From an uncultured Actinomycetota bacterium (lineage in GTDB: Bacteria; Actinomycetota; Actinomycetes; Frankiales; Frankiaceae): a stretch of DNA of 64,000 nt. Below, in pieces: positions 37,391-63,247 of this stretch. The notes under the pieces were generated by a model. That model saw only the letters and a list, made by a program, of their open reading frames with translations. It was not told the origin of the DNA and did not search any database. Both the position numbers and the translations under genes were made by a program. Each line of letters opens with the position of its first letter. Position 1 is the first letter of the stretch. The stretch lies in assembly GCA_963711135.1 (NCBI GenBank), contig CAVQCZ010000005.1, forward strand, positions 163,149 to 227,148. Reading direction: 5' to 3'.

Positions 37391-37392
37391 TC

Positions 37393-38136: not shown

Positions 38137-38409
38137 TCACTGACTCGAGACTCGTGCCTGTTCCTGCGCGTTGTTGATCGCCGACTGCCCAAGGCCGCGG
38201 ACGGCTTCTTCCGCGTTGTGCAGTGCAGGCTTGTGTTGGGTGTTCCACCAGTCCGCGAACTGCCGCGCGTCATTGCCCTGCCACACGGACTCCAGCTGGC
38301 GAACGATGCCGTCAACCGCGCTGATGACACCGTTGATGGCGTCTGCCTGGTGCTGCAGCTGGTGACCGAGACCGGTGACGGCCTCAACGTCCATTCCTAC
38401 CTGTGCCAT
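38137..38409 (-). CDS. WXG100-family (ESAT-6-like) protein; the only stand-alone copy in the window
   Basis: The protein is 90 aa: MAQVGMDVEAVTGLGHQLQHQADAINGVISAVDGIVRQLESVWQGNDARQF.... The WxG motif (WQG) lies at the centre of a helix-turn-helix-length protein. Confidence 0.9.
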   Translation of the reverse strand: MAQVGMDVEAVTGLGHQLQHQADAINGVISAVDGIVRQLESVWQGNDARQFADWWNTQHKPALHNAEEAVRGLGQSAINNAQEQARVSSQ

Positions 38410-38460
38410 TTTCTTTCTCCTTCACTTTCGTTGTGAGGCTTCAGATTTCAAACGTGCGTG

Positions 38461-41400
38461 TCATTCGAGGCCGACCGAACTGGCCGCCGTCATCACGATA
38501 GTGATGCGGACATCGTGGGGGAATGGGGAGAACTCCCCGGTTTTACTGCGGATGCCTGGCTCGTAGGCAGCGGAAGCTGGATCGTCGTCGTCGCTCCTCG
38601 GCGAACGAGAAAGCCGCGACCGGCCGGGAAATCGCCCCTTCGGCAGCGTGGGAAATCCGTCCTGAACACCGAGCCGTCGATCTGGTCGGGTTGCAGGCAG
38701 AAGCCGGCTTCGAGCAGACCTGGCCACCGTCAACAGCGGATAGCTGGAGTTGAACGCGCCCACCTCCCCCTCGCACAGCACCAGATGGCCCCGCCGCGCC
38801 GCCGTCTTGATGAGGTTCTGCAACGGCACGTCTGCGGCAGTGTTGAGGAAGTCCGGCAGTCCTTCGATGAAAAGGGTGACCGGTGCCGCTCCCGGCGCGT
38901 CGAGCTGAGGCAAGAGATTCGCGCAGAAGTCGGGGACTTCGTCGGCGCTGTCGATGTTCAGCGTCCAGCGGGCGAGCTCGGACAGGCTCGTCGGCACCGA
39001 ACCGATGCGGTAGGACGCCGTAGCGGGCCGACAGCGAGCGACGGATTCGACAAGCGCGGCAACGGCGCTGGTACGGCCACTTCCGGGAGGGCCGGTCACG
39101 ATGAAGACGCCCTCAGCCGAAAAGCCGACGGGCGCCAGCGTGACCGCAGATATGCCGAGCACGGGCTGTCCCTCGACGGCAAGCGGAAGTTCGCTGAGCT
39201 GGATGTGATCAGTGAGGCGCTGGATGGGCGGGGCGGGAGCCACATCGGCACGCCTCATGGCTGTCGACAGCCGGCGCATCGCTCTGGCTTGCGCATTGGG
39301 GTCCGGGTCGGTACCCAAGATCGCAACCTGCACTTCTGACTCGTCCAGCAAGCCGCGTCCTGGGGGAGAGGACGTCTTCAGCACATCCGATGGCAGGCCC
39401 GCGAGCGCGTAGTCGGCGTCGTCAGCCATCCGCAGTACCAGCCGGCGCTGAAGGCTCGACGCCAGAGCGGTCGGGACGGCGCCTGGCCGGTCGGCGGAGA
39501 GCACGACATGGATTCCTACCGGGCGACCGTCGGAGCAGATGCTGACGAACATGTCGAACAAGCGCGCGCGCTCGCCGGCGTCGTACGCCTGGCGGAACGC
39601 CGGCAGGCCGTCGACCAGGAGCAGTATTCGAGGCTCCTGAGGCTGTTTCGCCCGGGAGCGATAGTCGGTCACCGATCCCGCGTTCGCCGCGGAGTAGAGG
39701 GCGGCGCGCTCGTCCACCAAAGCGCGCAACCATCGCAGCAGGCGGGCGATGCGCTCGTCGTCGTTCCCCGAAATGATGCTGCCGACGTGTGGAAGCTCCT
39801 CGAGGAGAGAAAGGCCCCGGGAGCCGAAGTCGATGCCGTAGACGTGGCAGGGACCGCCGCGAACGGTGAAGCTTGCGGCGATGGCAATGGCCCGCAGCAT
39901 GGTGCTCTTTCCCGACCCACCGGTGCCGTAGACGGCGAGGTTGCCGTCACGGTCCGGGCGGAACGCGACGGTGGGTTGGGATTGGTTTTCCGGATCGTCG
40001 AGGAGGCCGAAGACCAGCTCGTCGTCGCGTCTGCGGGACGGAACCTGGGACTGGTTGGACAGGTCGTAAACCGTGCCGAGCTCGTTGAGCCAGGGCTTGC
40101 GCGGAACCGGTACTTCCGCTGATTCGCTCGCCTGCCTGATCGCACCCACAAGCCGTTGGATGTCGGTGGGGCCGAGGTCGGTGTGTACGGGTGCGCCGGC
40201 CGCGATCTCCCAAACCCGCCCGGAGCCGAACGTCAGCTCCTCGACCAGGATCTCGGGCGGCGGGGGTTCGGCCTTTGTCCAGCCGCCGACGTAGCCGGCT
40301 TGAAACGGCACCAGCCGGCCGGGTCCCGTCTTCGAGACCGAGCGTCCGGGCAGCGACGGGTCAAAGAACGCGGCCTGTGGCGAGCCGAGCACGTCAGTGC
40401 TGTCGTACTCGTCAGCCATGCGGAGCGCCAGGCGCAGGTTGGTGTTCGCCCGCAGCTTGTCCTTGATGACTCCGGCCGGCTGCTGAGTGGCGAGTATCAG
40501 GTGGAGCCCGAGTGAGCGTCCACGCTGGGCCACATTGACCACACCGTCGACGAATTCCGGGACCTCTTGCACCAGAGCTGCGAACTCGTCGACGACGATC
40601 ACCAGGCTGGGAGGCGCGTCGGTCTGGCCGAGCTTCTCCAAGCTCATGAGGTCTTTGGCCCCATGGGTGCTCAGCACCTTCTCGCGGTAGCGAAGTTCGG
40701 CGGAGAGCGAGGTCAGCGCCCGCCGTACCAAGTGGGGGCTCAGGTCGGTAACGAGACCCACGGTGTGGGGGAGTTCCACGCAATCCCGAAACGCCGACCC
40801 ACCCTTGTAATCGACCAGCAGGAAGGTCAACCGCTGCGGACTGTGAGCCGCCGCCATGGCCAGGATCCAGGTTTGCAGGAGCTCGCTCTTGCCTGATCCC
40901 GTCGTCCCGCCGACGAGCGCATGCGGACCGTCAGAGCGCAAATCGAGTGCATGCGGCTCGCCTGCCGCCTGCCCGATGACGGCGCGAAGAGTTCCCGCAT
41001 GGCGCACCGGCTCCGCAGGTGCCATCGGTCCGGTGAGGATGGAACGATTCTCGGTCCAGCGACCGAGCACGGAACCAGCGGTGGCGTCCAGCCGCGAGCC
41101 CGGCAGACCGAGCAGCGAGACGCTGCGGGGAAGGTCGCTGTCGTCGTCGATCCTGGCTCCGGCATCGACGATCGGCGAGAGCATTCGGGCCAGCAAGTTG
41201 GCGTCTGCGGCATCGACGAGATCGGGTGAGACGGGCTCTACAATCTCACCCGACTGGACGTAGCCGATCCGGGTGTTGGCGTTCTGCACGTTGCGGGCAT
41301 CGATGAACGTGCGGCAGGCCGCGGGAAGCAGACCGGGAGTCGGGGCGAGCCACACGACGAAAACCCCGTGCTTCCAACCGGTTTCGGCGAGCTCGACCAG

Positions 41401-42942
41401 GCGACTGTGATCGACCGGAGCATCCGCTTCGATCATTACGAGAGCCGCAGGCAGAAGGTCCGGAGCATCCGAGCCGGCCCGCTGCTGGATCACCGACTCT
41501 ATTTCCGAAATCAGCTTCACCGCATCGGGGGCCGTGCATGCCAGCTGGCGCGCCTCGATGGGGCTGTGCACAGAGGTCGTGTGCGGGAGCCATTTCAGCC
41601 AGTCCCAGTCGGCGGCGGATGCCGAAGACGCGAATCCGGTGATGACCAGCTCCGCGGGGGAGTGCAGGACCGCTGCCTGGCAGAGCACGGAACGTGCAGC
41701 CGCCAGCAAGGCGGGACGCGGTCCGGCTATGCCAAGTGCTCCATCTTCAGCAAGCCGGGCAACCACGGGGACGGAATCGACAAACGAAAACCGCTCGGTT
41801 GCGGCGATGGCTTCGTGCAGCAGCGCACGAGAACCGCGTGTGCCCGCTGGCAGCCGCACAGTGCTGCGCGACGCCTGACGGCCGAGCCCCAAGCGGATCT
41901 CGGCGAAGCCCGGCTCGCCCGGACGACGGGTCCAGAGCAGATCGGCATGGCGTGCGGCGGCGTCCAGGCAATCCCGGGAAGACGGGTGTTCCTGCAGCCG
42001 GGCGGCAACCTCAGCCACGCGCGCCTGCTCGGCTCGGTCGACCGTTTCCGCCAAGTCGGCCCTGAAGGCCTTGACCGCAGCGCGATGACCCGACCGGCCG
42101 GAGAGCCGGGATTCAACCGCGTTTCCGATCAGCATGAGCGGACTCAGTGCGATGAAGATCAGCGACGTTGCCGACTTGGTGATGAGGAAGAGCAGACCGC
42201 CGATCACCAGAGGGGCAATCAGTGGCACGAAGGGGAACCGCGATTGCTTAGGCGGGTCAGGCAGCTCCGGGACGTCGGATTCCAGTCCCTGGAATCGGGG
42301 CTCCAAGCGAGGAGGGCGTATCCAGAGGATGCTGGACTGGTCGCCGTCGGTGGCCGTGCGGGGCGCAGGTGCGGCCTTCAGCATCAGCTCCGAGTCGCCG
42401 GCAAGGACCCGATCTCCCACCCGGAGAACACACCGGGAGATGCTGTCCCCTCCGACCGATAGGCCGTTCGCAGAGCCGAGATCCGCGATCTCGACGTCGT
42501 TGGTGACGTTGAGCCGAGCATGCTGACGCGAGACAAGTGGATCGTTCAGCGTCACCTCGCAGTTGGGGTCTCGTCCGATGAGGCTGCTGCCGCGGGCAAG
42601 CCGGAATTCCTTGCCGGTGTCCGGTCCAGCCGTTACCGCAAGCACCGCGACCCCTACCGCTTCCGGGTCTTGGTAGCGGTTCCCCTCGCGGCTGAGCGTG
42701 ACCGTAGCGCCCGAGCGCAGTCCGCTTTCGCCGAGCGGAAGCCGGGGATCAAGCGCCCGGGTGTCGCGGCTCACGACCGCGAGGGTCGCCCGTTCGTCGC
42801 GGATGAGGCTGCTGCCGGTGTCTGCAGTGTCGGCGGTGCTCAGGAACCTCGCGAGGTCGCCGACTGTGGCTCGGGCATCGGCCGTCACGAGGAGATCGAC
42901 GGTGCTCCCGCCGGAGCGCTGAAGCGTGAATTTGAGTTTCAC
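38461..42942 (-). CDS. eccC: T7SS FtsK/SpoIIIE-family ATPase (EssC/EccC-like) with N-terminal ubiquitin-like and FHA domains; 3' end apparently frameshifted
   Basis: Three P-loops are present: GGTTGSGKSE, GTGGSGKST and GPPGSGRTS. The N-terminus (KFTLQRSGGSTVDLLVTADARATVGDLARFL...GLRSGATVTL) looks YukD/Ubl-like. The FHA domain reads LIGRDPNCEVTLNDPLVSRQHARL...GSANGLSVGG. Two TM helices follow. After about 38710, the family-typical tail (AGFCLQPDQIDGSVFRTDFPRCRRGDFPAGRGFLVRRGATTTIQL) lies in the +1 frame. The corrected stop would then be at 38493-38495. Confidence 0.85.
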   Translation of the reverse strand: MKLKFTLQRSGGSTVDLLVTADARATVGDLARFLSTADTADTGSSLIRDERATLAVVSRDTRALDPRLPLGESGLRSGATVTLSREGNRYQDPEAVGVAVLAVTAGPDTGKEFRLARGSSLIGRDPNCEVTLNDPLVSRQHARLNVTNDVEIADLGSANGLSVGGDSISRCVLRVGDRVLAGDSELMLKAAPAPRTATDGDQSSILWIRPPRLEPRFQGLESDVPELPDPPKQSRFPFVPLIAPLVIGGLLFLITKSATSLIFIALSPLMLIGNAVESRLSGRSGHRAAVKAFRADLAETVDRAEQARVAEVAARLQEHPSSRDCLDAAARHADLLWTRRPGEPGFAEIRLGLGRQASRSTVRLPAGTRGSRALLHEAIAATERFSFVDSVPVVARLAEDGALGIAGPRPALLAAARSVLCQAAVLHSPAELVITGFASSASAADWDWLKWLPHTTSVHSPIEARQLACTAPDAVKLISEIESVIQQRAGSDAPDLLPAALVMIEADAPVDHSRLVELAETGWKHGVFVVWLAPTPGLLPAACRTFIDARNVQNANTRIGYVQSGEIVEPVSPDLVDAADANLLARMLSPIVDAGARIDDDSDLPRSVSLLGLPGSRLDATAGSVLGRWTENRSILTGPMAPAEPVRHAGTLRAVIGQAAGEPHALDLRSDGPHALVGGTTGSGKSELLQTWILAMAAAHSPQRLTFLLVDYKGGSAFRDCVELPHTVGLVTDLSPHLVRRALTSLSAELRYREKVLSTHGAKDLMSLEKLGQTDAPPSLVIVVDEFAALVQEVPEFVDGVVNVAQRGRSLGLHLILATQQPAGVIKDKLRANTNLRLALRMADEYDSTDVLGSPQAAFFDPSLPGRSVSKTGPGRLVPFQAGYVGGWTKAEPPPPEILVEELTFGSGRVWEIAAGAPVHTDLGPTDIQRLVGAIRQASESAEVPVPRKPWLNELGTVYDLSNQSQVPSRRRDDELVFGLLDDPENQSQPTVAFRPDRDGNLAVYGTGGSGKSTMLRAIAIAASFTVRGGPCHVYGIDFGSRGLSLLEELPHVGSIISGNDDERIARLLRWLRALVDERAALYSAANAGSVTDYRSRAKQPQEPRILLLVDGLPAFRQAYDAGERARLFDMFVSICSDGRPVGIHVVLSADRPGAVPTALASSLQRRLVLRMADDADYALAGLPSDVLKTSSPPGRGLLDESEVQVAILGTDPDPNAQARAMRRLSTAMRRADVAPAPPIQRLTDHIQLSELPLAVEGQPVLGISAVTLAPVGFSAEGVFIVTGPPGSGRTSAVAALVESVARCRPATASYRIGSVPTSLSELARWTLNIDSADEVPDFCANLLPQLDAPGAAPVTLFIEGLPDFLNTAADVPLQNLIKTAARRGHLVLCEGEVGAFNSSYPLLTVARSARSRLLPATRPDRRLGVQDGFPTLPKGRFPGRSRLSRSPRSDDDDPASAAYEPGIRSKTGEFSPFPHDVRITIVMTAASSVGLE
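38525..38538 (-). promoter_or_regulatory. Palindrome GGGGAG-TT-CTCCCC (read on the minus strand), copy 1 of 3
   Basis: The plus strand reads GAATGGGGAGAACTCCCCGG. It lies about 115 nt upstream of the WXG100 start, inside the 3' end of the ATPase gene. Confidence 0.5.
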
Positions 42943-45281
42943 GACGGAGTGTCCGTGAGTGAGGCCGCCGTCAGGTTAGGCGGAAGCAGGGATCGCAAGC
43001 TGAGGGCGGTGCGGATCCGTTGCCGGCGGCTGAGCGAATCTGTCATGGTGCGTCGAGTCTTGTCGACCATGCTCCAGTACTCAGCAGCCGCTTCCGGTGA
43101 CAGCGCATCCGGACCGAAAATGCGCGCGTCCGCGGCGATCGCCAGCGGGCGGACATCGTGCTCACCGATCGCCGAGGCCTGCTCGCGCCGGGTCCGCCCA
43201 CTGGGAACGGCGAAGCCAAGGTCGCGCGCCAGGTCCACAATCTCGTGCCAGCCCCGTGCGATGCGCGTTTGGGCGGTGCCCCGCTGACGTCGTCGTGACC
43301 GTCGCCGCGCCTTCGTGCCGACGACCACACCGACGAAAAGCAATACGGCGAGGATCGGAGGGCCGCCCCACTGAGCAGCAGTCACAAGGAAATGCGGAAT
43401 ACGAAACCCGGCGCCGGCTTGCTTCTTGTGATTGGGGCTGGAGTGCAGCGAGCTGGTGTCGGCCGTTGCGGCGGTGTCGAGGGTGCTCGGCGGCCGCGTT
43501 GGATTCGGCGGTGGCACGATCGAGGCGGTCGCGTCAGACACCTTCTGCGGAGGCTGTTTCGTCGGCTTCTTCGACTGCGGGGGCATGAACTTCGTCTGGG
43601 GCACCGCAACCCACCTGCCGTCACCAAGGTGCATCTCGACCCAAGCGTGGACGTCACGACCTTTGATCACGCCGTTGGCCTCGGGAGTGGCTCCGAGTAC
43701 GACCCGGGTCGGCATCCCGAGATCGTTGGCCAGCAGCGCGAACGCGGCCGCGTACTGCTCGTCGTCGCCGACAATCTGCGTCGAGTTCAGAAAGGACGTG
43801 AGGCGCCCTACGCTGTGTCCGGGCAGGTACTGGCCTTCGCCCTTCCCGCCATCGCTGTAGAAACCCGCAGTGTGCAAGTGCGTTGCCACCGCCTGCACTT
43901 CAGCCCAGACGTCACCGGTCTTCCCGGCCCATTGCGCGGCGCGATTGGCGACGAAACTGGTAACCGACGACTGGAGGGCTGGTTGGCCGTACGGGCGCAA
44001 TTGCTGCGGCGCCTTGGTATCCAGCACCGTGTGCAGCGTGTACGTGTCGCCGGCCTTGAGCTGATCCGTGACCACTCCAGCGGAAGTCGCGAGGTTGTAG
44101 CGGAAGCTGGCGGCATGGCTGGTGCTGTCTGCGCCGGAGAAGCTCACGGAACGCAGGCTGCCCGCCTCCGGAACCCAGGCGTTGGCGTCAGAGATGGCCG
44201 CATACCCCGGCGCGATGGTGATTTCTACTGCCGTCGATGGGCCATTCGACTCCGCGGGTATCCGGGTGCCGACCTTCTGGAAAGAGTCTTCAGGCTCGTT
44301 GGAGCTGACCAGGCTTCCTGAGCTGGCACCCCAGACCGAGCCGTTGTAGCTGTCGAGTACGGCGAAGCGTAGGGGCTGCCCTGCGGGTAGGCCGTGCACC
44401 GTCAGAAGTTGCTGGTCGTAGAGCAGCTTGGCGTCTTTCGTGTACTTGCGGAAGCCGACCAGTGGGCTCGCGTAGGTGCTCAAGTCCAGCGGAGGCTGAA
44501 CATAAGCCCGCACCACAACCCGTTTGTGGGTCGACACTCCAGGCAGATGCGGCCCCACAAAGGCCGCGAGCGGCGCGGTTATGGCCAGCAGCGCGACAGC
44601 CGTCACGGCGCGGCTGCGCTGCCGGCTTCCGTTCTGCACCAGCGGATTGATGCGCTGAGACCGGACAGCCGCCCACCCGATCGCAACGGCAGCGAAGCCC
44701 AAACCCTGAACCCAGCGCGCGGCGGGCTGGGCCGTCCCGAGCAGGATCACGACCGATAGGAGCGCGATCGGTGCGAGCAGCGGCGTGACGGCGTTGCGCA
44801 ACCGCCGGGCCATCGTCATGCCGATGGCTCCGCAGGCGAGACCGAGCAGGTACGGCAGGACGAGCAGCGGCCCGCTCCCGTCGACCGGAGGCAACGTGGT
44901 CACCAGCTGCTTCCAGCCGTTGACACTCACCGACGCCAAATGCTTTACGGCACTCGCAGTGGGAAGCACCCCGATGGCGGTCTGGGTCCGCAGCGCGATG
45001 GCGCCTCCGAGCAAGAAGAACGTCAGAACGGTGACGACGGCAATGGCGATGATCGGCTGCCGGAGCACGTTGGCGAAATGGCCGATGAGCAGACCTAAGA
45101 CGAGTCCAGCCACGCCGACGAGAAGGTAGGACTGGCCGGTGTACGTCGTACGGAAGCCCAGCAGGGCAACGACCGACAGGACTGCCAGAAAGCCGGCGTC
45201 CTGCGCGTCGGCACGCGTGACCCGCCAGTGAATGCGACGGACCTCGCGACCGGCACCGGGCGAAAAAACAGCGCTACTCAT
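42939..45281 (-). CDS. Polytopic transglutaminase-like membrane protein (TgpA-like)
   Basis: About six N-terminal TM helices are visible. The core reads QIVGDDEQYAAAFALLANDLGMPTRVVLG...DVHAWVEMHLGDGRWVAV. A late TM segment and a basic tail follow. Start and stop overlap the neighbouring genes (GTGA at 42939-42942, ATGA at 45278-45281). Confidence 0.75.
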   Translation of the reverse strand: MSSAVFSPGAGREVRRIHWRVTRADAQDAGFLAVLSVVALLGFRTTYTGQSYLLVGVAGLVLGLLIGHFANVLRQPIIAIAVVTVLTFFLLGGAIALRTQTAIGVLPTASAVKHLASVSVNGWKQLVTTLPPVDGSGPLLVLPYLLGLACGAIGMTMARRLRNAVTPLLAPIALLSVVILLGTAQPAARWVQGLGFAAVAIGWAAVRSQRINPLVQNGSRQRSRAVTAVALLAITAPLAAFVGPHLPGVSTHKRVVVRAYVQPPLDLSTYASPLVGFRKYTKDAKLLYDQQLLTVHGLPAGQPLRFAVLDSYNGSVWGASSGSLVSSNEPEDSFQKVGTRIPAESNGPSTAVEITIAPGYAAISDANAWVPEAGSLRSVSFSGADSTSHAASFRYNLATSAGVVTDQLKAGDTYTLHTVLDTKAPQQLRPYGQPALQSSVTSFVANRAAQWAGKTGDVWAEVQAVATHLHTAGFYSDGGKGEGQYLPGHSVGRLTSFLNSTQIVGDDEQYAAAFALLANDLGMPTRVVLGATPEANGVIKGRDVHAWVEMHLGDGRWVAVPQTKFMPPQSKKPTKQPPQKVSDATASIVPPPNPTRPPSTLDTAATADTSSLHSSPNHKKQAGAGFRIPHFLVTAAQWGGPPILAVLLFVGVVVGTKARRRSRRRQRGTAQTRIARGWHEIVDLARDLGFAVPSGRTRREQASAIGEHDVRPLAIAADARIFGPDALSPEAAAEYWSMVDKTRRTMTDSLSRRQRIRTALSLRSLLPPNLTAASLTDTPS

Positions 45282-47553: not shown

Positions 47554-47560
47554 ATTCCAC

Positions 47561-53500: not shown

Positions 53501-53833
53501 GTTGTCTCGCGCGATCACGGCTGCACCGTCTTGCGACACGTCAAGCGTGGAGGTTTCGCGCGCACCGCCGGGCGGGTTGAACGCCCCGTCGAGCGCGCCC
53601 GCCGGTTTGTTCACACGTCCGAAAAGGTCTTGAGCGTTGTTCGTGACCCAGATCCCGCCGTCGTGGAGATTCACGTGTTGAACGGGGTATCCGTTCGACG
53701 TCAGGGCGAACGCCACGAGGGTGGAAGCCCCCACTGCCAGAGCCGCAGTTGACGCAAGCGCCGTCTGATGGCGCTTCAGAAACCCCAATGCATCCCCCGG
53801 AACATCTAACCTGAAAAAAACAGGTACGGCCAA
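47561..53833 (-). CDS. Giant (2090 aa) membrane-anchored surface protein with a propeller-like N-domain, many cadherin/Ig-like domains, FN3 domains and a Trp/Tyr-rich C-terminal domain
   Basis: The N-terminal TM segment is [20 protein letters not shown]. Cadherin-like signatures recur ([61 protein letters not shown]). FN3 units are visible ([23 protein letters not shown]..., [22 protein letters not shown]...). The TTG start at 53833 is uncertain. The stop is 7 nt before the moxR start. Confidence 0.85.
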
Positions 53834-53949: not shown

Positions 53950-54669
53950 TCATGGGGCCTCCGTCCGGTCGAGGAGGCTCAGATCGTCACGATGCACGAG
54001 CCGGGTAGCGAGTGCGAACTCCACCAACCTGGCGCGACGATTGACGGCCAGGCGCTCCGGTCCTCCGTGTAGCCCCCGGACCCCGACTTGAGTCAGTCGC
54101 TGGCAGACGTTGTCCAGCTTGCGGTTGAACTTGGTGATCGGCCATCCGAGACGCGCGGCTGCTTCGGCGGATGTCGGCACCGTGGATGCCCCGCGCTCGC
54201 CGCGCCTCAGGGGCTGCTCGCACAAGGCGATGACAAGGAGTCTCTGGTCCGGCGTCAAGGAAACCGGCCCGACGGTCGTGATTCCGGTGTCACTCTGCTC
54301 GGCGAGCGCAGGGGTGTACGGCGCGGCCTCGAGCTGCACCTCGAACTCGTAGGTCGTGGGACCTGCGGTGAACCAGACAATGTTTCGGCTGAAGACCAGC
54401 GGAAGTCTCGCGCCCGGGGCCAGCCAAGCCTGCATCGTGCCGTGCTCGTCGGCGATGGTGGCGGTGAGCTGGGTGCCGAGATTGCTGAGCACCCACAGCG
54501 AGTCCTGGTCGGCAAGCTGCAGGAACTTGCGATGCAGGTAGGGGTTGTCGTCCACCGTGAGGTCGCCGTCCCTACCGATGGTGAAAGGCCGCGACGGGAC
54601 GACGACGTATCTCTCACCGCAGAAATCGATCGTTGCAGCGGGCAGAGCCGCGGCGGAGACGGGCATCAT
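53950..54669 (-). CDS. Degenerate-FHA-like domain plus C-terminal HTH protein (candidate locus regulator)
   Basis: The start is ATGATG at 54669, forming an ATGA overlap with the kinase stop. The N-domain reads RPFTIGRDGDLTVDDNPYLHRKFLQL...LWVLSNLG. The C-terminal part is HTH-like (LTPDQRLLVIALCEQPLRRG...TSAEAAARLGWPITKFNRKLDNVCQRL). It is a paralog of 62555..63244. Confidence 0.65.
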   Translation of the reverse strand: MMPVSAAALPAATIDFCGERYVVVPSRPFTIGRDGDLTVDDNPYLHRKFLQLADQDSLWVLSNLGTQLTATIADEHGTMQAWLAPGARLPLVFSRNIVWFTAGPTTYEFEVQLEAAPYTPALAEQSDTGITTVGPVSLTPDQRLLVIALCEQPLRRGERGASTVPTSAEAAARLGWPITKFNRKLDNVCQRLTQVGVRGLHGGPERLAVNRRARLVEFALATRLVHRDDLSLLDRTEAP

Positions 54670-56288
54670 GGGCTGCACTTCGCGGCCGACCAATCGACAG
54701 CAGCATTGCTGCCGTCCGCACGCATCACTTTGATCTGCAGGCAGACAGGCGTCCCCGCGGGGGCGGACAGCGTCAGTGAGTTGTGTTGCGTGACACCGTG
54801 ACGAGCATTGTCGGAGGTTCTCCACCTGAAGGTGTCGCTGGCCAATGAGGCGTCGTAGGTCCAGCCGAACTGGACTGCGCCAGCGCTTGTCCGGGTGGCT
54901 GTGATCTGCGGTGTGCCAGGCGGAATCGCTTCTCCCGCAATGCCGGCGTCCTGCGGGGGCGTCGTCTGCGAGGTGCTCGCTAGCGCGTGAGCCTTGGGCT
55001 TGCTCCCGGATGACAGTGCTACTCCGACGGCGATGCTCGTCGCGATCACGACGGCAGCGGCTGCTACGACGAGGTAGCGTCGCGCGCCCCGGTGGGTTTC
55101 TCCGGCTGCCTCGGCTACTACGCCGCCCTGAGGTATTTCGGGCGACACCGGCTTGCGGATGGTTGACGGCAGCTCTCGCTTGTGTGCTGCGGCGCGGTCG
55201 ACCGATCGCGCCGCCGAGCCAGCCGAAGTCGCCTCGGCCGCCGGGGAAGGAGCTCGACCATCGGGAGCTTTCGGTGGCGGCGGTTGGACGAACTGCCGCC
55301 TCGAGCCCGGTGGGCTGGGCGGGGGAACGAGGGGTACGCGCTGCGGGGTTCGGACTGAGGTCGGCGCCTCTTCCCCGCCCCCGATTACGCGGCGAACAGC
55401 TTGCGTCTGCTCCTCTGCCAGGACCACGATGTCAGTGCGCGGAAGGCGAAGCTCCTGCTCGACCGCGAGGAGGGACCGAGCTAAGGCAATCGCGGACTCC
55501 GGCCGAGCGCTTGGATCCTTCGCCATGGCCTGCTGAAGAAGCCGCTCAAACGTGGTGGGGACTTCGGCGCGGCCGGTTGGGGGCGGCGGGGTGTCCCTGA
55601 TCCTGCGCATGAGCGCGTAGGCCTTGTTGTCCCCGCGGGGGACCTCGAACGGAGAACGCCCGACGAGCAAGTGCCACAGCGTTGCGCCGAGCGAGTAGAC
55701 GTCGGAGCGGACGCTCGCCGATGCCGTGCCGTAAAGGACCTCGGGCGGTGCCCAGGGAACTGAGACGCCGCCGTCCTCCTCTTCCGCCTCAGCGGAGGCG
55801 AGTTGAGCAGCGATACCGAAATCGGTAAGCCCAGGCGCCCCGTACTGGCTGGTGAGAATGTTCGCCGGCTTGATGTCCCGGTGCAAGATGCCCGCCCTGT
55901 GGGCGGTTTCCACCGCGCTGGCGATCTGTATGCCGATGCGGATGACCTCGGCGACAGGCAGTCCACCTTGCGCCGCCCGCACACTCAGGTTCGGGCGCGA
56001 GTAGTAGCTCATGAGCAGGAATGGACGGCCATCGTCGGTTTCGCCGGCAGAGAAGACCGGGACGATGTTGGGATGGTCGGCCAACGCGGCCATCGCGTTT
56101 GCTTCGGCTACGAATTGCCGACGAACCCCATCATCGAGATTGCCGACGCGGAGCACCTTGACGGCGACCTTGCGTCGCGGCATCTCTTGCTCGTACAGGT
56201 AAACATCGCTGTATCCCCCAGAGCCGAGTGGTTCGAGGTAGCTCAGACCAGAGATCTCCGGAATCGCTTCGGACAACGGCCGTTTCAC
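54666..56288 (-). CDS. Single-pass receptor Ser/Thr protein kinase with a small beta-rich ectodomain
   Basis: Kinase motifs are present (GSGGYSDVYL, VAVKVL, HRDIKPANIL, DFGIAA, PWAPPE). The TM segment is YLVVAAAAVVIATSIAVGVAL. The GTG start overlaps the upstream stop (GTGA). Confidence 0.85.
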   Translation of the reverse strand: MKRPLSEAIPEISGLSYLEPLGSGGYSDVYLYEQEMPRRKVAVKVLRVGNLDDGVRRQFVAEANAMAALADHPNIVPVFSAGETDDGRPFLLMSYYSRPNLSVRAAQGGLPVAEVIRIGIQIASAVETAHRAGILHRDIKPANILTSQYGAPGLTDFGIAAQLASAEAEEEDGGVSVPWAPPEVLYGTASASVRSDVYSLGATLWHLLVGRSPFEVPRGDNKAYALMRRIRDTPPPPTGRAEVPTTFERLLQQAMAKDPSARPESAIALARSLLAVEQELRLPRTDIVVLAEEQTQAVRRVIGGGEEAPTSVRTPQRVPLVPPPSPPGSRRQFVQPPPPKAPDGRAPSPAAEATSAGSAARSVDRAAAHKRELPSTIRKPVSPEIPQGGVVAEAAGETHRGARRYLVVAAAAVVIATSIAVGVALSSGSKPKAHALASTSQTTPPQDAGIAGEAIPPGTPQITATRTSAGAVQFGWTYDASLASDTFRWRTSDNARHGVTQHNSLTLSAPAGTPVCLQIKVMRADGSNAAVDWSAAKCSP

Positions 56289-57931
56289 GCTTCCACCTCG
56301 AAGGTGAAGGTGACGTCATCTGTCAACGCCACCACAGTTCCCGGCTCGATCAGCTGTGGATCGCGGGGGCGCAACTGTGTGGGTGGTTGACCGGGAAGCG
56401 TGACGACAGTGCCATTGGTCGACTCGAGATCCTCGACAAAGACCAGCCATCCGTCCAGGAGAACCTGAGCGTGTGTGCGCGAGATGTCCTTGTCGCGGCT
56501 GGGCAACTGCATCACGTGCGGCCGATCTCGTCCCTCTTCCGCGGGCGCTTGAGGGGCTCTCCCCATGAGAACGCCCTTGTCGAGTGACACGACGTCGCCG
56601 GTGCTGAACCTCAGTACACCGAGTGCGGGTCGCGGGACCCTCGTGGGTTCCTGGGTCGGCATGGTCTGTCGGCATACTCGACAATTGCCGGCGTGGGCTG
56701 GGCTCAGGTGTCCTGCCGGGCAGCGGGCAGCCAAGACGATCGGGCCCACTTCTTGCACGCCCGTGGGCGCTTGCGCTGCCAGGAGCTGAGCTCGACTGAT
56801 GGTGTTCTCGCTGAGCTCTTCGCCGATGTCTTCCGGATCGAAATTCAAGGTCGGTCGGGCGGCCGCCGGGACCGCTGGCTCGGCGACGGGGGAGGCGGCT
56901 TGCGGCGGAGCGGGAGCTGGAGATGACTGACGCTTCCAGGGCAGTTCGTCGATGAGATCGGAGCTGTCGTCGGTCTGTGGAAGCAGGGTGTCGTCAGGAA
57001 GGAGAGTCGAGTAGGAGTCCGCTCTCGGCGCCTGCGTTGGAAGCCGGGTCATCGGGTGAGGTTCAGCCTCGCCGGGCGATGTGGCAGGACCCGCTACGGG
57101 GGTCGGCTCGTCGTCGCCCCGCTCCGTCACCGGGCCTTGCGTGGCGCCGAAGAGATGGTCGTAGTCGTCGGCAAGTGCATCTTCCGACTCTTCCGCGGCC
57201 AGCGGATCGTCAGCCTGGGCGAGCGGCTCCTGCGGCGTTTCGGGTGCTGGCGGCGTTTCGGGAAGGGACGGGGTTTCGGGTGCGGGCGGCGTTTCGGGCA
57301 GGGGCGGCGTTTCGGGTGCGGGCGGTAGCGGCGACGGTGCCGCGAGATCGAAGAAGTTTCCGCCGTCGCTTCGGCTCGGCGGAGCGAAGTGGACGTCCAC
57401 TGTCTCTCGTCCGGGTTTCGAAGCGTCGCTCGGCTGAGCGGGAATGCTCAACCGTCCGGCCAGGACGACACCGCTGCGCAGCGGCAATTCGACGTCTTCC
57501 TGGTCCTGGCTCCCCTGGACAAGGGACAAGGCTCCCGCCGAAGCGGGAGCCACATGTTCGCGCCAGGTTGGGGCGTACTCCGAGGTCATCTCAAAGTTGG
57601 CACCGCCTGGCTGGGTCCAGATACCGCGCGACTGACCGCGCAGGATCACCCTGAGCACACCTTCCCGGACGCTGGCCAGGGCGAAGTCGCTGACAACCCG
57701 GAAGCCGGCCTCCAGGATGGCGCCGAGGATCTCGTCGGGGTCGGCGTCTCTTCGTATGAGTCCCCAGCAGGCGAGGACAACCTCATGATTCGCAGGAATT
57801 TCCGCCAACAGCCAGGTTCGCTCTCCGGCGAGGCAGACGAAGGGGCCGGGTACGTAGGTGATTTCAGCAAGCGGCGACTGAACCAACTCAATCGCTCCCG
57901 ATGCGGCGCAACCGCGGGGCCGTGGTTTCAT
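56285..57931 (-). CDS. FHA-domain protein with an unknown N-domain, a PETPP-repeat linker and a zinc-ribbon-like motif
   Basis: The C-terminal FHA domain reads GVLMGRAPQ...SRDKDISRTHAQVLLDGWLVFVEDLESTNGTVV. The motif CPAGHLSPAHAGNCRVC precedes it. I start the gene at the ATG at 57931; a TTG at 57886 is the alternative. The track ORF from 58072 overlaps the PP2C gene. Confidence 0.75.
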   Translation of the reverse strand: MKPRPRGCAASGAIELVQSPLAEITYVPGPFVCLAGERTWLLAEIPANHEVVLACWGLIRRDADPDEILGAILEAGFRVVSDFALASVREGVLRVILRGQSRGIWTQPGGANFEMTSEYAPTWREHVAPASAGALSLVQGSQDQEDVELPLRSGVVLAGRLSIPAQPSDASKPGRETVDVHFAPPSRSDGGNFFDLAAPSPLPPAPETPPLPETPPAPETPSLPETPPAPETPQEPLAQADDPLAAEESEDALADDYDHLFGATQGPVTERGDDEPTPVAGPATSPGEAEPHPMTRLPTQAPRADSYSTLLPDDTLLPQTDDSSDLIDELPWKRQSSPAPAPPQAASPVAEPAVPAAARPTLNFDPEDIGEELSENTISRAQLLAAQAPTGVQEVGPIVLAARCPAGHLSPAHAGNCRVCRQTMPTQEPTRVPRPALGVLRFSTGDVVSLDKGVLMGRAPQAPAEEGRDRPHVMQLPSRDKDISRTHAQVLLDGWLVFVEDLESTNGTVVTLPGQPPTQLRPRDPQLIEPGTVVALTDDVTFTFEVEA

Positions 57932-58673
57932 CGACCGGCTCTGGAGCGAGGCCGGGTGAATGGTCGACAACGATGACCGAGACGTTGTCCCGCCCACCAG
58001 CGGCGAGGGCGCGGCGAACGAGTGCCTCGGCAGCGTCGTGTGGGGTGGCTTCCGTCGCAAGCACGAAATCAATGGTCGAGTCGGGCACCTCGTTCGTCAG
58101 CCCGTCTGAACAGATGAGGAAGCGCTCCCCGTCCTCAGGCGGGAAAACCCAGAGATCCGGACTGGGCGACGGGAGACTTCCCAAGCAGCGCGTCACGACG
58201 TTCCGGCGGGGATGCACGCGGGCGTCGGCTGGGCTGAGTGCTCCAGACGCGACCATCTCTTCCACCTCGGAATGATCGACCGTCAACTGTTGCAATGCGC
58301 CATGTGCGTAGCGGTAAACGCGTGAGTCTCCGATGTTGAAAACGAGCCAGTGAGCACCACCAGACAGCTGGACCACGGCCAGGCCGGCGACTGTCGTCCC
58401 CATCCCGATTCGGCTGGACTCCGTCGCCGCGTTAGCGAGAATGGTGTCATTCGCGAGCGACAGGGCGCCCATGATCTGCTCCGACGTAAGCGATTCGACA
58501 TCGGCCAGCCGGCCCAGCACCTCGACCGCGATCGAGCTCGCAACGTCGCCGGCCGCGTGACCGCCCATCCCGTCAGCCACCGCGCACAGTGTCGACGAAG
58601 TCAGCACGGCGTCTTCGTTGACCTCTCTCAGAACCCCGACGTTGGTCACCGCGGACGCCAGGACCGTCAACAT
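57888..58673 (-). CDS. PP2C-family (PPM) Ser/Thr phosphatase
   Basis: The motifs REVNEDA, ADGMGGHAAGDVAS, ICSDGLTN and GGRDNVSVIVVD are present. Confidence 0.9.
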   Translation of the reverse strand: MLTVLASAVTNVGVLREVNEDAVLTSSTLCAVADGMGGHAAGDVASSIAVEVLGRLADVESLTSEQIMGALSLANDTILANAATESSRIGMGTTVAGLAVVQLSGGAHWLVFNIGDSRVYRYAHGALQQLTVDHSEVEEMVASGALSPADARVHPRRNVVTRCLGSLPSPSPDLWVFPPEDGERFLICSDGLTNEVPDSTIDFVLATEATPHDAAEALVRRALAAGGRDNVSVIVVDHSPGLAPEPVDETTAPRLRRIGSD

Positions 58674-58839
58674 GGAACGGCTCCTGCCAGCGCTTGAGAT
58701 TTGACAGCCTTCCGTTGAGCATTCGAAATTGCAGCCGACCCGTCAGGCAGAGAAGGCAAAAGCAGACTGAATCCTAGCGGCACGGCCCGGCCGGCGGACC
58801 GGGATGACAAATATGTATATGCGATTTGAGTTGACGCCA

Positions 58840-60030
58840 TTAGGACCCGGTCTGACTCAGCCATGACGGGCTTCGCCCAAAGAATGTCACGGCTTCACGG
58901 TTGAGCCAAAGCGTCGCCACGATCGTGATGTCCAACCCGATGCCGATGAAGAATCCGAGGGAATGCGCGCCACCGATCAGCTGAAGGACGATGGTGATGA
59001 GGCTGACGGCTGCTGCAACGATCGGTGCGCTGTGCTCGGCGTCGCCCACCAGCTTGTAGGAGACCACGAAGCCCACCGCAAGCAGCAGCATGAACAGCCC
59101 GACGACGTAGTACTTGCCGTCGAACTTGCCGAGCAGGAGATACAGGAGAGCGATCAGACCGACAAGACCGCCGTTCACGGCGAGCAGGACCTGAGCGATG
59201 ACCACCGGTGCGGGACGATCGCCGTCACGCGTCCTGGATTGAGCGAAGTGGTCACGCACACTCTGCGGGAGCCATAGCAGGGCGCAGGCAATCGCCGAGC
59301 CGAGAAGGATCACAGCCCGCCACGACCCACTGCCACTTCCGCCACTGGTCGTGTCGGCACCGGAGCCCGAGAGGGCGCCGATGACCAGGGCGAGGGCGAG
59401 CGCCACGGCCAGACCCCGACCAACCCGATCTGCCTTGAACAGGAGGTAGGCAACCGCCAGGCACGCCGCGCCGAACGCTGCGATGATCAGCAGAAGGAGA
59501 AGCAGCACCCAAGCAAGTTGACCGAAATACGGGCTGCCGAGCGCCTTCGCGATATCGGGGAGGGGGCGCAATCCCTCGAACAGCGTGTAGACGCCCATGG
59601 TGACAAGGGCCCCGATCACGATGAGCAGCTCGTTGGGAACCATGGCTAGGAGCCGCGGCGCTGCGGGTCTCGAAGGCAGGGGGGGTGCTGGTGACGTGAG
59701 GGGCGCCGCAGCGGGTGCGGCCGGCTCCCCGCCGAGTGTTGCGGGCGATCCGAAGCTCGCCGTCGGAGGCGGCACAGGCGCTGCGACAGCGGCGGGCACG
59801 ATCGGACGGGAGATCGGGCGGAGGGTCGTTCTTTCGACGTCGGGATCCAGGCGGTCGTCAGGTGCGTTATCAAGGTGTGGTGCGCTGCCGGCCGGGCGAT
59901 AGGCCGGCAGCTCAGCGGCCGGCCCTTCCTCGATGCTCTGCCACGAGTACCCGCAGTGGGCGCACTGAGGCACCCTGACATGGACCCGTTGCCCGCACAT
60001 CGGACACTCGGGTGCGACCTCGTCCCCCAC
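58840..60030 (-). CDS. N-terminal zinc-ribbon, Pro-rich linker and polytopic membrane protein; first gene of the minus-strand cluster
   Basis: The zinc-ribbon motif is CPMCGQRVHVRVPQCAHCG. About seven hydrophobic helices follow. Confidence 0.7.
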   Translation of the reverse strand: MGDEVAPECPMCGQRVHVRVPQCAHCGYSWQSIEEGPAAELPAYRPAGSAPHLDNAPDDRLDPDVERTTLRPISRPIVPAAVAAPVPPPTASFGSPATLGGEPAAPAAAPLTSPAPPLPSRPAAPRLLAMVPNELLIVIGALVTMGVYTLFEGLRPLPDIAKALGSPYFGQLAWVLLLLLLIIAAFGAACLAVAYLLFKADRVGRGLAVALALALVIGALSGSGADTTSGGSGSGSWRAVILLGSAIACALLWLPQSVRDHFAQSRTRDGDRPAPVVIAQVLLAVNGGLVGLIALLYLLLGKFDGKYYVVGLFMLLLAVGFVVSYKLVGDAEHSAPIVAAAVSLITIVLQLIGGAHSLGFFIGIGLDITIVATLWLNREAVTFFGRSPSWLSQTGS

Positions 60031-63244: not shown

Positions 63245-63247
63245 GCG

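Follow-up and report, generated by a model that had tools for sequence, protein, structure and literature searches.

We identified a run of eleven minus-strand genes in an uncultured member of the Actinomycetota that is likely to be a threat sensor of the Esr type joined, by a shared phospho-relay, to an Esx/type VII secretion ATPase. The run extends from position 60030 down to 38137 (~22 kb) of a 64-kb stretch of DNA, referred to here as the window. Esr stands for the epibiont sensing and response pathway, and its Esx-linked form, Esr2, has been reported from Schaalia odontolytica F0309 (Wang et al., bioRxiv, September 2026, an unreviewed preprint; PMC13622651). A sensor of MoxR, vWA protein, transglutaminase, kinase, phosphatase and FHA protein tied to Esx was described there in 2026. 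The cluster in the window combines two modules that can occur apart, the sensor and the secretion ATPase, and the locus is a further example of the published Esr-Esx arrangement rather than a new type of secretion machine. The sensor probably switches on the ATPase by threonine phosphorylation.

Genomic arrangement

The eleven genes are co-directional, and the ORF coordinates directly give start/stop overlaps of 4 nt at 42939-42942, 45278-45281 and 56285-56288. A fourth overlap (54666-54669), between the kinase gene and a gene for a 239-aa protein, is real if the latter begins at the ATG at 54669, which is residue 53 of its longest ORF. The gap between the gene for a giant surface protein and moxR is 7 nt when the true start of moxR (47553) is used. 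The preliminary description had listed the eleven genes, the four overlaps and the 7-nt spacing, all of which are borne out. HMM searches also confirmed most of its domain labels. Three points do not stand: an 'FHA-like/HTH' label for the 239-aa protein, which no HMM or profile supports, the reading of moxR as an intact ORF, and an uninterrupted frame for the ATPase gene.

Secretion ATPase and WXG100 proteins

The gene at 38461..42942 (minus strand) encodes an EccC/EssC-type ATPase with three P-loop domains, preceded by a predicted ubiquitin-like domain (Ubl), an FHA domain and two transmembrane (TM) helices. Pfam searches identify the FHA and FtsK_SpoIIIE domains, and there are three Walker A motifs (residues 679, 1006 and 1284), of which the last is a degenerate GSGRT. 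The best full-length PDB matches, which include the TM and stalk region, are EccC (4nh0, 1e-71), EccC5 and YukB. The NCBIfam models for EssC and EccCa score 495 and 353 bits, both under their cut-offs, and FtsK scores 69 bits. The adjacent gene (38137..38409, minus strand) encodes a WXG100 (EsxA/TsdA-like) protein with a WQG motif, scoring 28.2 bits against a Pfam threshold of 27.3 (PF06013) and sharing 70% and 86% identity with its orthologues in the related loci L001 and L087. These matches agree with the earlier view that a three-P-loop FtsK-family ATPase and a WXG100 protein mark the locus as type VII.

Genes for candidate toxins fused to WXG100 domains flank the operon on both sides. Divergent from the run and beyond the region first described, a plus-strand gene at 60399..61271 encodes a WXG100-CHAP fusion with matches to both domains. 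Its N-terminus shares 55% identity with the small WXG100 protein, an orthologue holds the same position in L087, and the fusion is a candidate secreted peptidoglycan-hydrolase toxin. On the other side, tblastn with a WXG100 query identified a plus-strand gene at 36629..37390 for a candidate toxin with an N-terminal WXG100 domain and a C-terminal domain that has no match in a Pfam search. A 236-aa ORF (37342-38052) overlaps and trails this gene.

It is very improbable that the ATPase is a DNA translocase for conjugation or segregation with an incidental WXG100 gene beside it, even though the FtsK_SpoIIIE domain is also found in DNA pumps and homologues of the protein are labelled 'DNA segregation ATPase' in databases. 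The full-length matches to EccC, EccC5 and YukB and the margin of the EssC and EccC scores over FtsK argue for a protein exporter, as do the flanking toxin fusions and the WXG100 gene kept beside the ATPase in ATPase-anchored loci and most others.

The ATPase N-terminus is modelled by AF2 as a beta-grasp (bb-a-bb..b, pLDDT ~90). A profile of 24 orthologous N-termini has ubiquitin as its top match (E = 0.0034), and seven of the 24 match Pfam YukD (best 3e-7), a search in which the N-terminus from the window has no match. A Ubl at this position is a prediction with indirect support. In the FHA domain that follows, the phosphothreonine-binding residues G123, R124, S138, H141, N159 and G160 are invariant across 39 homologues.

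EccB, EccD, EccE and Peptidase_S8 have no match in any large ORF of the window, in agreement with the preliminary description, which had recognized no EccB, EccD, EccE or mycosin. Five related loci likewise have no EccB/D/E gene closer than 10 kb to the ATPase; one of the five (L004) has a Peptidase_S8 gene ~5 kb downstream. Together with the ATPase and WXG100 matches, the result for the window supports a type VII-type secretion locus without EccB/D/E or mycosin.

Proposed sensor proteins

The giant protein (47561..53833, minus strand) has an N-terminal signal/anchor helix, a beta-propeller (approximately residues 61-380) and then a long series of Big_9, cadherin-like and FN3 repeats (Pfam Big_9 x9, Cadherin_5/4 and fn3). 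The AF2 model has a pLDDT of 76 and a pTM of 0.71, and Foldseek ranks BamB, a YVTN propeller and cd1 nitrite reductase as its top matches. No C-terminal TM helix was found by hydropathy analysis. This architecture matches the published EsrA sensor layout of a signal/anchor, an N-terminal beta-propeller and an Ig-like stalk.

The next three genes are EsrB-, EsrC- and EsrD-like. The first is a frameshifted moxR of the AAA_3 family (46581..47553, minus strand). The second (45278..46612, minus strand) encodes a DUF58/vWA-type protein with two N-terminal TM helices; it scores 20.2 bits for DUF58, under the 23.4-bit threshold, but it aligns with its orthologues, and the Terrabacter orthologue does match DUF58. 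A genome scan yielded 575 relatives. The third (42939..45281, minus strand) encodes a TgpA-like membrane transglutaminase with Pfam TgpA_N and Transglut_core domains; the stop of this gene and the start of the ATPase gene share 4 nt.

Kinase, phosphatase and FHA protein

The EsrE/TsdD-like Hanks-type Ser/Thr kinase (54666..56288, minus strand) matches Pkinase (2e-40), crosses the membrane with one TM helix (residues 406-424) that is followed by ~115 aa of extracytoplasmic tail, and is conserved upstream of the giant gene in related loci. HRD and DFG motifs are visible in its translation, and the protein looks active, as had been proposed. The EsrF-like PP2C Ser/Thr phosphatase (57888..58673, minus strand) matches PP2C_2 (6e-15) and NCBIfam Stp1_PP2C_phos (212 bits), and its metal-binding motifs are invariant in alignment. 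Between them lies the gene for an EsrG-like FHA output protein (56285..57883, minus strand), which probably starts at the GTG at 57883. This protein consists of a conserved N-terminal domain, a disordered region rich in Pro, Glu and Thr, a CPAGH..CRVC zinc ribbon and, at the C-terminal end, an FHA domain (2e-7). Orthologues with the same layout are present in Knoellia loci, L087, L086 and L112, and the layout is kept in loci with and without the sensor set.

Two further genes complete the run. The 239-aa protein (53950..54669, minus strand) is highly conserved, being present in 58 of 85 loci (55-65% identical) and 83% identical in L087; its 'FHA-like/HTH' label has no support from Pfam, PDB profiles or hhalign against an FHA-containing profile. 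The first gene of the run (58840..60030, minus strand) encodes a polytopic membrane protein with an N-terminal CxxC..CxxC zinc ribbon that is itself a weak Pfam match, a Pro-rich linker and ~7 hydrophobic/TM helices by hydropathy. Its family comprises ~137 representative clusters. Homologues adjoin PP2C and FHA genes in L086 and L087, and in L169 one lies beside FHA, zinc-ribbon and kinase genes, with EccC absent within the locus.

Conservation of gene order

The gene order recurs in related loci (85 tabulated and further loci) across many Actinomycetota, more than chance would give. The nearest relatives of the locus include Jatrophihabitans, Longispora and Pseudonocardiales. The series giant-MoxR-DUF58-TGase-ATPase-WXG100 is found in four ATPase-anchored loci (a JGI metagenome contig, Longispora, Terrabacter and Kutzneria). 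The kinase and 239-aa genes lie upstream in 51 of the 66 DUF58-anchored genome loci, and the ATPase lies downstream in 26 of the 61 that can be evaluated (43%). The remaining 35 have the kinase-giant-MoxR-DUF58-TGase set without the ATPase. Conversely, L087 (ZnTM-PP2C-FHA-239aa-ATPase-WXG100) and L112 (PP2C-(FHA protein)-kinase-239aa-ATPase) have no giant, MoxR, DUF58 or TGase gene within the DNA covered for each locus. Four more loci (L093-L095 and L097) have PP2C-kinase-giant, followed by MoxR in L093-L095 and also by DUF58 in L093 and L094.

The preliminary description had suggested that there may be a distinct T7SS-like apparatus here, with membrane and assembly components supplied by the MoxR/DUF58/transglutaminase triad and the giant protein. 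On this reading these proteins would stand in place of EccB/D/E and MycP, and the giant protein would be an envelope-spanning conduit. The absence of EccB/D/E and of an S8 protease from the window, and of EccB/D/E near the ATPase in the five related loci, favors such a role, as do the 4-nt overlap of TGase and ATPase genes repeated in L001, L002, L004 and L005 (four of four ATPase-anchored loci) and the speculation by Garrett et al. that the giant Ig-like TsdI is a possible conduit (PMC11217815). However, because the modules are separable in both directions, this set is not the structural core of the secretion machine. The same five-gene set also forms the PFNA operon of Bifidobacterium, the giant protein lacks a C-terminal TM helix, and its propeller is typical of a ligand-binding tip. 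Deletion of the Esx-linked esrA2 in Schaalia odontolytica leaves EsxA/EsxB export near wild type and abolishes only AesA/AesB export (PMC13622651). We consider the assignment to apparatus parts quite unlikely, and the EsrA-type architecture points to the giant protein as a probable sensor component.

Frameshifts in moxR and the ATPase gene

In a frameshift-aware alignment to the L001 MoxR, eight corrections of one or two bases are needed from 47381 to 46737, and moxR, listed earlier among the genes, is not open; the 305-aa ORF given by the ORF finder (46643-47560) is in a frame other than that of the true start. Orthologues are intact (322-334 aa). The ATPase frame shifts near 38626-38705, ~60 codons before the gene end, with the conserved C-terminus in another frame; the corrected gene would stop at ~38493. 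In this sequence moxR, and possibly the ATPase as well, may be inactive.

These changes might mean that the locus is a decaying remnant, with a moxR pseudogene, a truncated ATPase and neither sensing nor secretion operating, a reading compatible with the best explanation of what the locus once was. The eight indels fall within ~1 kb outside long homopolymers, and the conserved last ~60 residues of ATPase domain 3 are lost. However, once restored, the MoxR segments still closely resemble the orthologue and the nucleotide differences are mostly synonymous by eye, which argues against prolonged neutral decay. Approximately 20 kb of adjoining genes are intact, among them a 6.3-kb ORF. Split genes also occur in related contigs, apparently from long-read metagenome assemblies (SecY in L003 is in three pieces). 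Since the proteins of the window are database singletons from one 1.13-Mb contig, consensus error in moxR, the most conserved gene, is a live alternative. We regard decay as less likely than not.

Proposed mechanism

Domain identities, the propeller and Ubl folds, the invariant phosphothreonine-binding residues, the gene order and module separability come directly from our analysis; that the locus works like the published Esr-Esx is inferred. In the first module, the giant protein would be exported, with its beta-propeller at the N-terminal end of the long Ig-like, cadherin-like and FN3 stalk. The membrane transglutaminase probably anchors it to the envelope, and MoxR and the DUF58/vWA protein would act as a chaperone pair remodelling the complex; sensing and transglutaminase-dependent retention are taken from the literature. 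Once activated, the single-pass kinase would phosphorylate threonines, the likeliest targets being those in the FHA output protein's disordered region (phosphothreonine on EsrG is also from the literature), and the PP2C phosphatase would reset this state. In the second module, consisting of the EssC-like ATPase and its WXG100 partner, the N-terminal FHA domain may read phosphothreonine and license assembly or substrate choice; that some Esx substrates are under post-translational control is likewise taken from the literature. Export of the WXG100 protein and the WXG100-fused toxins from both flanks would come next. Threonine phosphorylation, proposed earlier as the gate, very probably controls the locus, judging from the invariant FHA residues and the encoded kinase, phosphatase and separate FHA protein.

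Comparison with known systems

In the H1-T6SS of Pseudomonas, the membrane Hanks kinase PpkA, the PP2C phosphatase PppA and the FHA reader Fha1 gate secretion post-translationally. The gating logic is the same, by analogy only as the systems are not homologous; the T6SS is an unrelated secretion machine, whereas here an FHA domain is built into the ATPase. An analogous Agrobacterium case is cited in PMC11217815.

The MoxR-vWA-centred ternary conflict systems (Kaur, Burroughs, Iyer and Aravind, eLife 2020; PMC7159879) also place a MoxR-vWA chaperone pair at the core of a diversifying, sensor-coupled system enriched in Actinobacteria. However, the present locus has no VMAP or iSTAND third component, and its vWA protein is a membrane DUF58 type without fused effectors. 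According to the Esr authors, Esr clusters went undetected in that survey (PMC13622651). The Bifidobacterium PFNA operon (pkb2, fn3, aaa-atp, duf58, tgm; PMC8430577) shares the order kinase, large FN3-containing protein, MoxR-type AAA ATPase, DUF58 and transglutaminase, but is described without an EccC/WXG100 module and with a proposed role in host-cytokine sensing.

T7SSd/e, variants with an FHA-ATPase, a kinase and a giant Ig-like protein, were named in 2024, and their phospho-regulation was proposed at the same time (Garrett, Higginson and Palmer, Microlife; PMC11217815). Shared features are an ATPase nearer EssC than EccC with an N-terminal FHA domain of conserved phosphothreonine-binding consensus, a WXG100 gene that is adjacent and single, a Ser/Thr kinase and a secreted Ig-like protein of very large size. 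As at the present locus, T7SSe also has a PPM phosphatase and a further protein that ends in an FHA domain, but it is confined to Bacillota. T7SSd is reported without a ubiquitin-like component, whereas a Ubl is probably fused to the present ATPase; TsdI has a C-terminal TM helix that the present giant protein lacks, and no TsdH-like single-TM gene was identified at the locus. That paper makes no mention of MoxR, DUF58 or transglutaminase.

The closest counterpart is Esr-Esx (PMC13622651). Esr2 likewise comprises a filamentous surface protein (signal, N-terminal beta-propeller, Ig-like repeats) and the trio of MoxR, vWA-type protein and transglutaminase, together with a Ser/Thr kinase, a phosphatase and an FHA output protein. 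Likeness to the Schaalia Esr proteins, and to Olsenella TsdC, is by architecture and synteny. Differences include the taxonomic range of the relatives, since Esr is found mainly in Actinomycetales and Propionibacteriales, a free EsrG-like protein in addition to the FHA-fused ATPase, a Ubl before the FHA domain, the conserved 239-aa and zinc-ribbon membrane proteins, and the disrupted moxR. The candidate effectors are WXG100-CHAP fusions without an AesB-like motif (GYVNP was not found in the window). In both cases, however, the cluster is merged with esx genes and the EccC-type ATPase bears a fused FHA domain, EsrG-EccC fusions being reported and such FHA fusions called frequent in the preprint. 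The 43% of sensor loci next to an ATPase here compares with 40% of 3502 Esr loci that adjoin esx genes. Of the distinct T7SS-like apparatus proposed earlier, the type VII-type locus without EccB/D/E stands and the new secretion machine does not. The T7SSd/e and Esr-Esx ideas are both already published (PMC11217815; PMC13622651).

Organization of the operon

Eleven minus-strand ORFs run from 60030 down to 38137, as the preliminary description had reported, and the 4-nt overlaps at 42939-42942, 45278-45281 and 56285-56288 are given directly by the ORF ends. A fourth overlap, at 54666-54669, is present if the ATG at 54669 is the start of the fifth gene. In transcription order, the operon begins with genes for a zinc-ribbon protein (a weak Pfam match with approximately seven hydrophobic helices), a PP2C phosphatase (PP2C_2, 6e-15), a protein bearing FHA at its C-terminus (Pfam), and a Hanks kinase with one TM helix (Pkinase, 2e-40). 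Catalytic motifs are present in both the phosphatase and the kinase, and the latter is predicted to be active. The fifth gene encodes a 239-aa protein with no Pfam or NCBIfam match, and the sixth a giant surface protein of 2090 aa containing nine Big_9 repeats together with cadherin-like and fn3 repeats. Next are a frameshifted moxR (AAA_3), a DUF58 gene, and a transglutaminase (TGase) gene (TgpA_N and Transglut_core). The operon ends with genes for an ATPase (FHA and FtsK_SpoIIIE) and a WXG100 protein.

Searches with Pfam and NCBIfam models bear out the FHA, PP2C, Pkinase, AAA_3, Transglut_core, FtsK_SpoIIIE and WXG100 assignments. The DUF58 match is weak (20.2 bits, under the Pfam threshold), and the Terrabacter orthologue is annotated as DUF58. 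We take DUF58 to have a vWA-type fold, and hence this protein to be the vWA partner of MoxR. The WXG100 protein has a WQG motif and scores 28.2 bits with PF06013 (threshold 27.3) and 28.7 bits with TIGR03930, under the cut-off of 44.9. Promoter and terminator counts in the operon are not above those of shuffled sequence, and PADLOC returned generic domain matches only, with no defence-system membership. The original observation of the cluster was largely right, but it overlooked frameshifts and probable effector genes on the flanks.

Frameshifts in moxR and the ATPase gene

The Pfam match of moxR spans just a third of the AAA_3 model, and in a three-frame translation the conserved sequence jumps between frames. 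Frameshift-aware alignment with the orthologue from L001, a related locus used as a reference, places the gene at 46581-47553 (minus strand) once eight corrections, each of one or two bases, are made between 47381 and 46737. The corrected protein is very similar to the L001 orthologue. The 305-aa ORF at 46643-47560 does not share the frame of the true moxR start at 47553. The inclusion of moxR in the operon therefore stands as homology that is clear after frame correction, but not as an intact ORF.

Either moxR is a pseudogene here or the assembly is locally in error. An assembly error would fit the fragmented genes in related contigs of long-read style, including SecY in three pieces in the related locus L003, and the window's proteins being database singletons that all come from one contig. 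However, a cluster of eight indels in one kilobase, with 20 kb of clean sequence next to it, would be odd if errors were random. The L003 contig has many split genes, which suggests a noisy assembly; it also carries a sensor-only cluster (7271-20931) consisting of kinase, giant, MoxR, DUF58 and TGase fragments between secY/map and infA/rpmJ, in a ribosomal protein region.

The ATPase gene changes frame near 38626-38705, leaving the last approximately 60 codons (38493-38705, minus strand) off-frame. The C-terminal motif LQPDQ..DG..F.T.FP....FP.GRG..V, present in all homologues inspected, lies in the other frame here, and the 1493-aa product in the public database has the same out-of-frame tail. 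The giant, DUF58, TGase and WXG100 genes each align to their orthologues in one single frame. GC3-based gene calling is too weak a discriminator at 65% GC for mapping frameshifts throughout the window.

An EccC/EssC-type ATPase with a fused ubiquitin-like domain

Apart from its 3' frameshift, the ATPase has the generic features of a type VII motor, namely an EccC/EssC-type architecture with two TM helices (236-265), a stalk, and three FtsK-like domains. Walker A motifs occur at residues 679, 1006 and 1284, the third being a degenerate GSGRT. The best PDB matches are Thermomonospora EccC (4nh0, 1e-71), EccC5, the TM-stalk region of EccC3, and B. subtilis YukB. Among NCBIfam models the EssC model outscores the EccC models, with all scores under the equivalog cut-offs. 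No EccB, EccD, EccE or mycosin/subtilisin-like protein was matched by Pfam or NCBIfam models among the cluster genes or the other large ORFs of the 64-kb window. The original reading of a non-canonical type VII locus, with an EccC/EssC-type ATPase and a WXG100 protein, is supported by these results.

The first 230 residues of the ATPase were modeled from 39 sequences (pLDDT 82). The model shows a bb-a-bb..b unit for residues 1-85 (pLDDT ~90) and an FHA sandwich for residues 99-190. Because the Foldseek matches listed for the N-terminus were dominated by FHA proteins (GarA, OdhI), the putative ubiquitin-like domain (Ubl) was examined with sequence profiles instead. The best match to a profile of 24 orthologous N-termini is ubiquitin (E = 0.0034), with ISG15 also among the matches listed, and 7 of the 24 N-termini match Pfam YukD (best 3e-7). 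In the FHA domain the residues expected to bind phosphothreonine (pThr), G123, R124, S138, H141, N159 and G160, are invariant in 39 homologues. Given this conservation, the locus is probably gated by threonine phosphorylation, as had been proposed.

The giant protein

The first 450 residues of the giant protein were modeled from 14 sequences (pLDDT 76, pTM 0.71). The model consists of a helix at 16-45 followed by an all-beta domain with approximately 28 strands at 61-380, and its Foldseek matches in the PDB are beta-propellers (BamB, an archaeal YVTN propeller, and cytochrome cd1). No C-terminal hydrophobic helix was found in the giant by hydropathy. In eight Knoellia and Janibacter loci (L007, L010, L012-L016 and L025) the sensor module is rearranged, with the giant gene downstream of the TGase gene and not upstream of moxR.

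Relay proteins and two conserved partners

The product of the third gene resembles EsrG, the FHA output protein of the Esr (epibiont sensing and response) pathway. It contains a ~240-aa region enriched in Pro, Thr (19 residues), Ser and Glu, and a zinc ribbon ahead of the C-terminal FHA domain. This EsrG-like layout, which runs from a conserved N-terminal domain through a disordered region and a CPAGH..CRVC zinc ribbon to an FHA domain at the C-terminus, is identical between the sensor-only loci of Knoellia and the ATPase-only loci.

The 239-aa gene is among the best-conserved genes of the cluster. Its product had been described as an FHA-like/HTH protein; this finds no support from Pfam searches with 20 orthologues, a PDB profile search, or hhalign comparison with a profile that includes a true FHA domain. 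Elsewhere in the window, at 62058-63244 (plus strand), a YbjN-family gene overlaps by 4 nt with a 229-aa ORF downstream of it. That ORF (62555-63244) matches no family, its N-terminus looks FHA-like, and it has no detectable relationship to the 239-aa protein.

The zinc-ribbon membrane protein was considered as a missing channel subunit. Its family comprises 137 representative clusters at 50% identity and the ATPase has more than 1000 matches among 90% clusters, counts that are not directly comparable. In the related locus L169 (5412-11047) a homologue has as neighbors genes for an FHA protein, a protein with multiple zinc ribbons (DZR) and a kinase, and an EccC-type ATPase is absent within the locus. 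We rejected a channel role on the basis of the small family and the L169 setting, and for the same reasons take the protein to be relay-associated and not core. Both it and the 239-aa protein are conserved unnamed partners and candidate relay components.

Sensor and secretion genes occur separately

A protein search with the ATPase returned over 1000 homologues, mostly with 50-60% identity, from sources including Jatrophihabitans, Longispora, Lentzea, Kutzneria, Terrabacter and Angustibacter. The order giant-MoxR-DUF58-TGase-ATPase-WXG100 and the 4-nt TGase/ATPase overlap are common to four ATPase-anchored loci, from a JGI metagenome contig, Longispora fulva, Terrabacter and Kutzneria buriramensis. 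A genome scan anchored on DUF58 yielded 80 loci from Intrasporangiaceae, Propionibacteriaceae, Jatrophihabitans, Nocardioides and others. Most of the scanned loci have the kinase, 239-aa, giant, MoxR, DUF58 and TGase genes in that order (tblastn), and the gene neighborhood is thus conserved across related loci. The DUF58 protein is beside MoxR in 82 of 85 loci and the TGase is found in 84 of 85. The kinase and 239-aa genes are both present in 51 of the 66 loci with sufficient upstream DNA. However, the ATPase is downstream in only 26 of 61 evaluable loci (43%).

The reverse situation also occurs. At 8860-19340 in locus L087, a WXG100-CHAP gene adjoins a run of genes for the zinc-ribbon membrane protein, PP2C, FHA protein, 239-aa protein, ATPase and WXG100 protein, and this operon lacks the kinase, giant, MoxR, DUF58 and TGase genes. 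A second WXG100-like sequence lies just downstream of it on the opposite strand. Most loci in a PP2C-anchored metagenome scan gave no informative match, and six were informative. Locus L112 has PP2C, a 475-aa protein of EsrG-like layout, and kinase-239aa-ATPase. The order PP2C-kinase-giant is found in L093-L095 and L097, with MoxR next in L093-L095 and DUF58 as well in L093 and L094. In many other loci, a lone, short and weak match to the ATPase query just upstream of the PP2C gene was taken to represent FHA-domain genes.

Since the sensor set occurs without the ATPase, the ATPase occurs without the sensor set, and the same EsrG-like layout accompanies both, the gene content indicates that the cluster is composed of two separable modules with a shared phospho-relay. 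The preliminary description had assigned the MoxR/DUF58/TGase triad and the giant protein to the machine as its membrane and assembly parts. Their separability in both directions argues against this, and they probably form a sensor. It is also conceivable, although we consider it rather unlikely, that a Ubl-FHA-EccC protein functioning without EccB/D/E or EssA/B/EsaA is a minimal, self-sufficient type VII export core, with an EsaB/YukD-like Ubl fused at the N-terminus and activity set directly by pThr from the co-encoded kinase. The six-gene cluster of L087 would then be the core, and the window an example of the core captured by an Esr sensor.

Flanking and surrounding genes

Two WXG100 fusion genes lie just outside the limits first drawn for the cluster. 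The first (60399-61271, plus strand) matches both CHAP and WXG100 and is followed by a lipoprotein-like 166-aa ORF (61344-61844), the pair spanning 60399-61844 (plus strand). In the second (36629-37390, plus strand), WXG100 is fused to a C-terminal domain of no known family, and with an overlapping 236-aa ORF the pair spans 36629-38052 (plus strand). The two fusions and their small ORFs resemble T7-type polymorphic toxins paired with immunity genes.

The window contains three further Hanks-type kinases on the plus strand (30062-32890, 34040-36613 and 63245-64000). One has Ig-like domains, one has a periplasmic-binding-protein domain, and the third is kinase-like and cut by the window end. Kinases likewise adjoin the L001 and L087 loci. 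The window is also rich in large predicted secreted proteins, at 6434-8893 (minus), 28192-29862 (minus), 2968-5712 (minus) and 22542-24962 (plus), which carry CHAP and FG-GAP, CHAP, beta-propeller and He_PIG, and GDSL lipase and RCC1 propeller domains. A STAND-type NTPase is encoded at 2-2637 (minus strand). GC content dips to 0.615-0.646 in 2-kb blocks across 22001-28000, and there is no ORF of at least 180 aa between 24962 and 26948.

Comparison with known systems

The EccB, EccD, EccE and MycP components of T7SSa, the mycobacterial ESX type, are unmatched among the cluster genes and the other large ORFs of the window. Similarly, the cluster genes have no family matches to the EssA, EssB/YukC pseudokinase, EsaA/YueB or free EsaB/YukD of the T7SSb of Bacillota. 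The EssC of T7SSb has tandem FHA domains without a pThr site, whereas the window ATPase has a single FHA domain with the pThr consensus intact, and its Ubl is fused and not free.

The T7SSd of Actinomycetota (Garrett, Higginson and Palmer 2024; PMC11217815) comprises a WXG100 protein, an EssC-like ATPase with the pThr consensus retained in its N-terminal FHA domain, a Ser/Thr kinase, a small protein with a single TM helix, and a very large Ig-like protein. In T7SSe there are also a Ubl, a phosphatase of the PPM family, and a protein carrying FHA at the C-terminus (PMC11217815). Control by threonine phosphorylation was proposed for T7SSd/e and an analogy drawn to T6SS; MoxR, DUF58 and transglutaminase are not mentioned (PMC11217815). 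By domains and model scores the window matches TsdC (N-terminal FHA with pThr residues), TsdA (WXG100) and TsdD (kinase). However, the C-terminal TM helix that TsdI has in addition to its Sec signal is lacking in the window giant, and no candidate was identified for TsdH, the small single-TM protein. The PFNA operon of Bifidobacterium is the kinase-FN3-MoxR-DUF58-TGase set (PMC8430577), and its order, with the 239-aa gene inserted after the kinase, recurs both here and in the majority of related loci.

In domain content and gene order the cluster has the same parts list as the Esr pathway of Schaalia odontolytica (Wang et al., bioRxiv, Sept 2026; PMC13622651). EsrA combines a signal with an N-terminal beta-propeller and Ig-like repeats (PMC13622651), and the window giant is likewise predicted to be secreted, with a signal, a propeller and an Ig-like run. 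The counterpart of the Esr MoxR is homologous after frame correction of a gene with eight frameshifts. DUF58, TGase, Pkinase and PP2C correspond to the vWA partner, EsrD transglutaminase, EsrE kinase and EsrF phosphatase, and the window FHA protein, with its disordered, predicted phosphorylatable region, fits EsrG. The N-terminal domain of EsrG is pseudophosphatase-like (PMC13622651). The FHA protein EsrG1 is threonine-phosphorylated upon epibiont exposure, esx genes adjoin 40% of 3502 Esr loci, and EccC-EsrG fusions are frequent (PMC13622651). Without the Esx-linked esrA2, export of AesA/AesB is lost and that of EsxA/EsxB is near wild type (PMC13622651). An AesB-type GYVNP motif was not found in the six frames of the window.

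Both the non-canonical type VII locus and the phosphorylation-linked sensor are known from the literature, and as the composite sensor/secretion design and phospho-gating have already been published, the cluster is not a new class of system. It provides an environmental, non-oral actinobacterial example of a very recent model. There, MoxR/vWA and a kinase/phosphatase/FHA relay connect a surface sensor to the type VII secretion of antibacterial effectors, which the sensor thereby licenses. To this model the cluster adds independent evidence that sensor and secretion genes separate in both directions, and two conserved unnamed partners in the 239-aa and zinc-ribbon membrane proteins. Additionally, the ATPase of this clade has a fused Ubl ahead of a predicted pThr-competent FHA domain, in contrast to T7SSd, which was reported without a ubiquitin-like component (PMC11217815).
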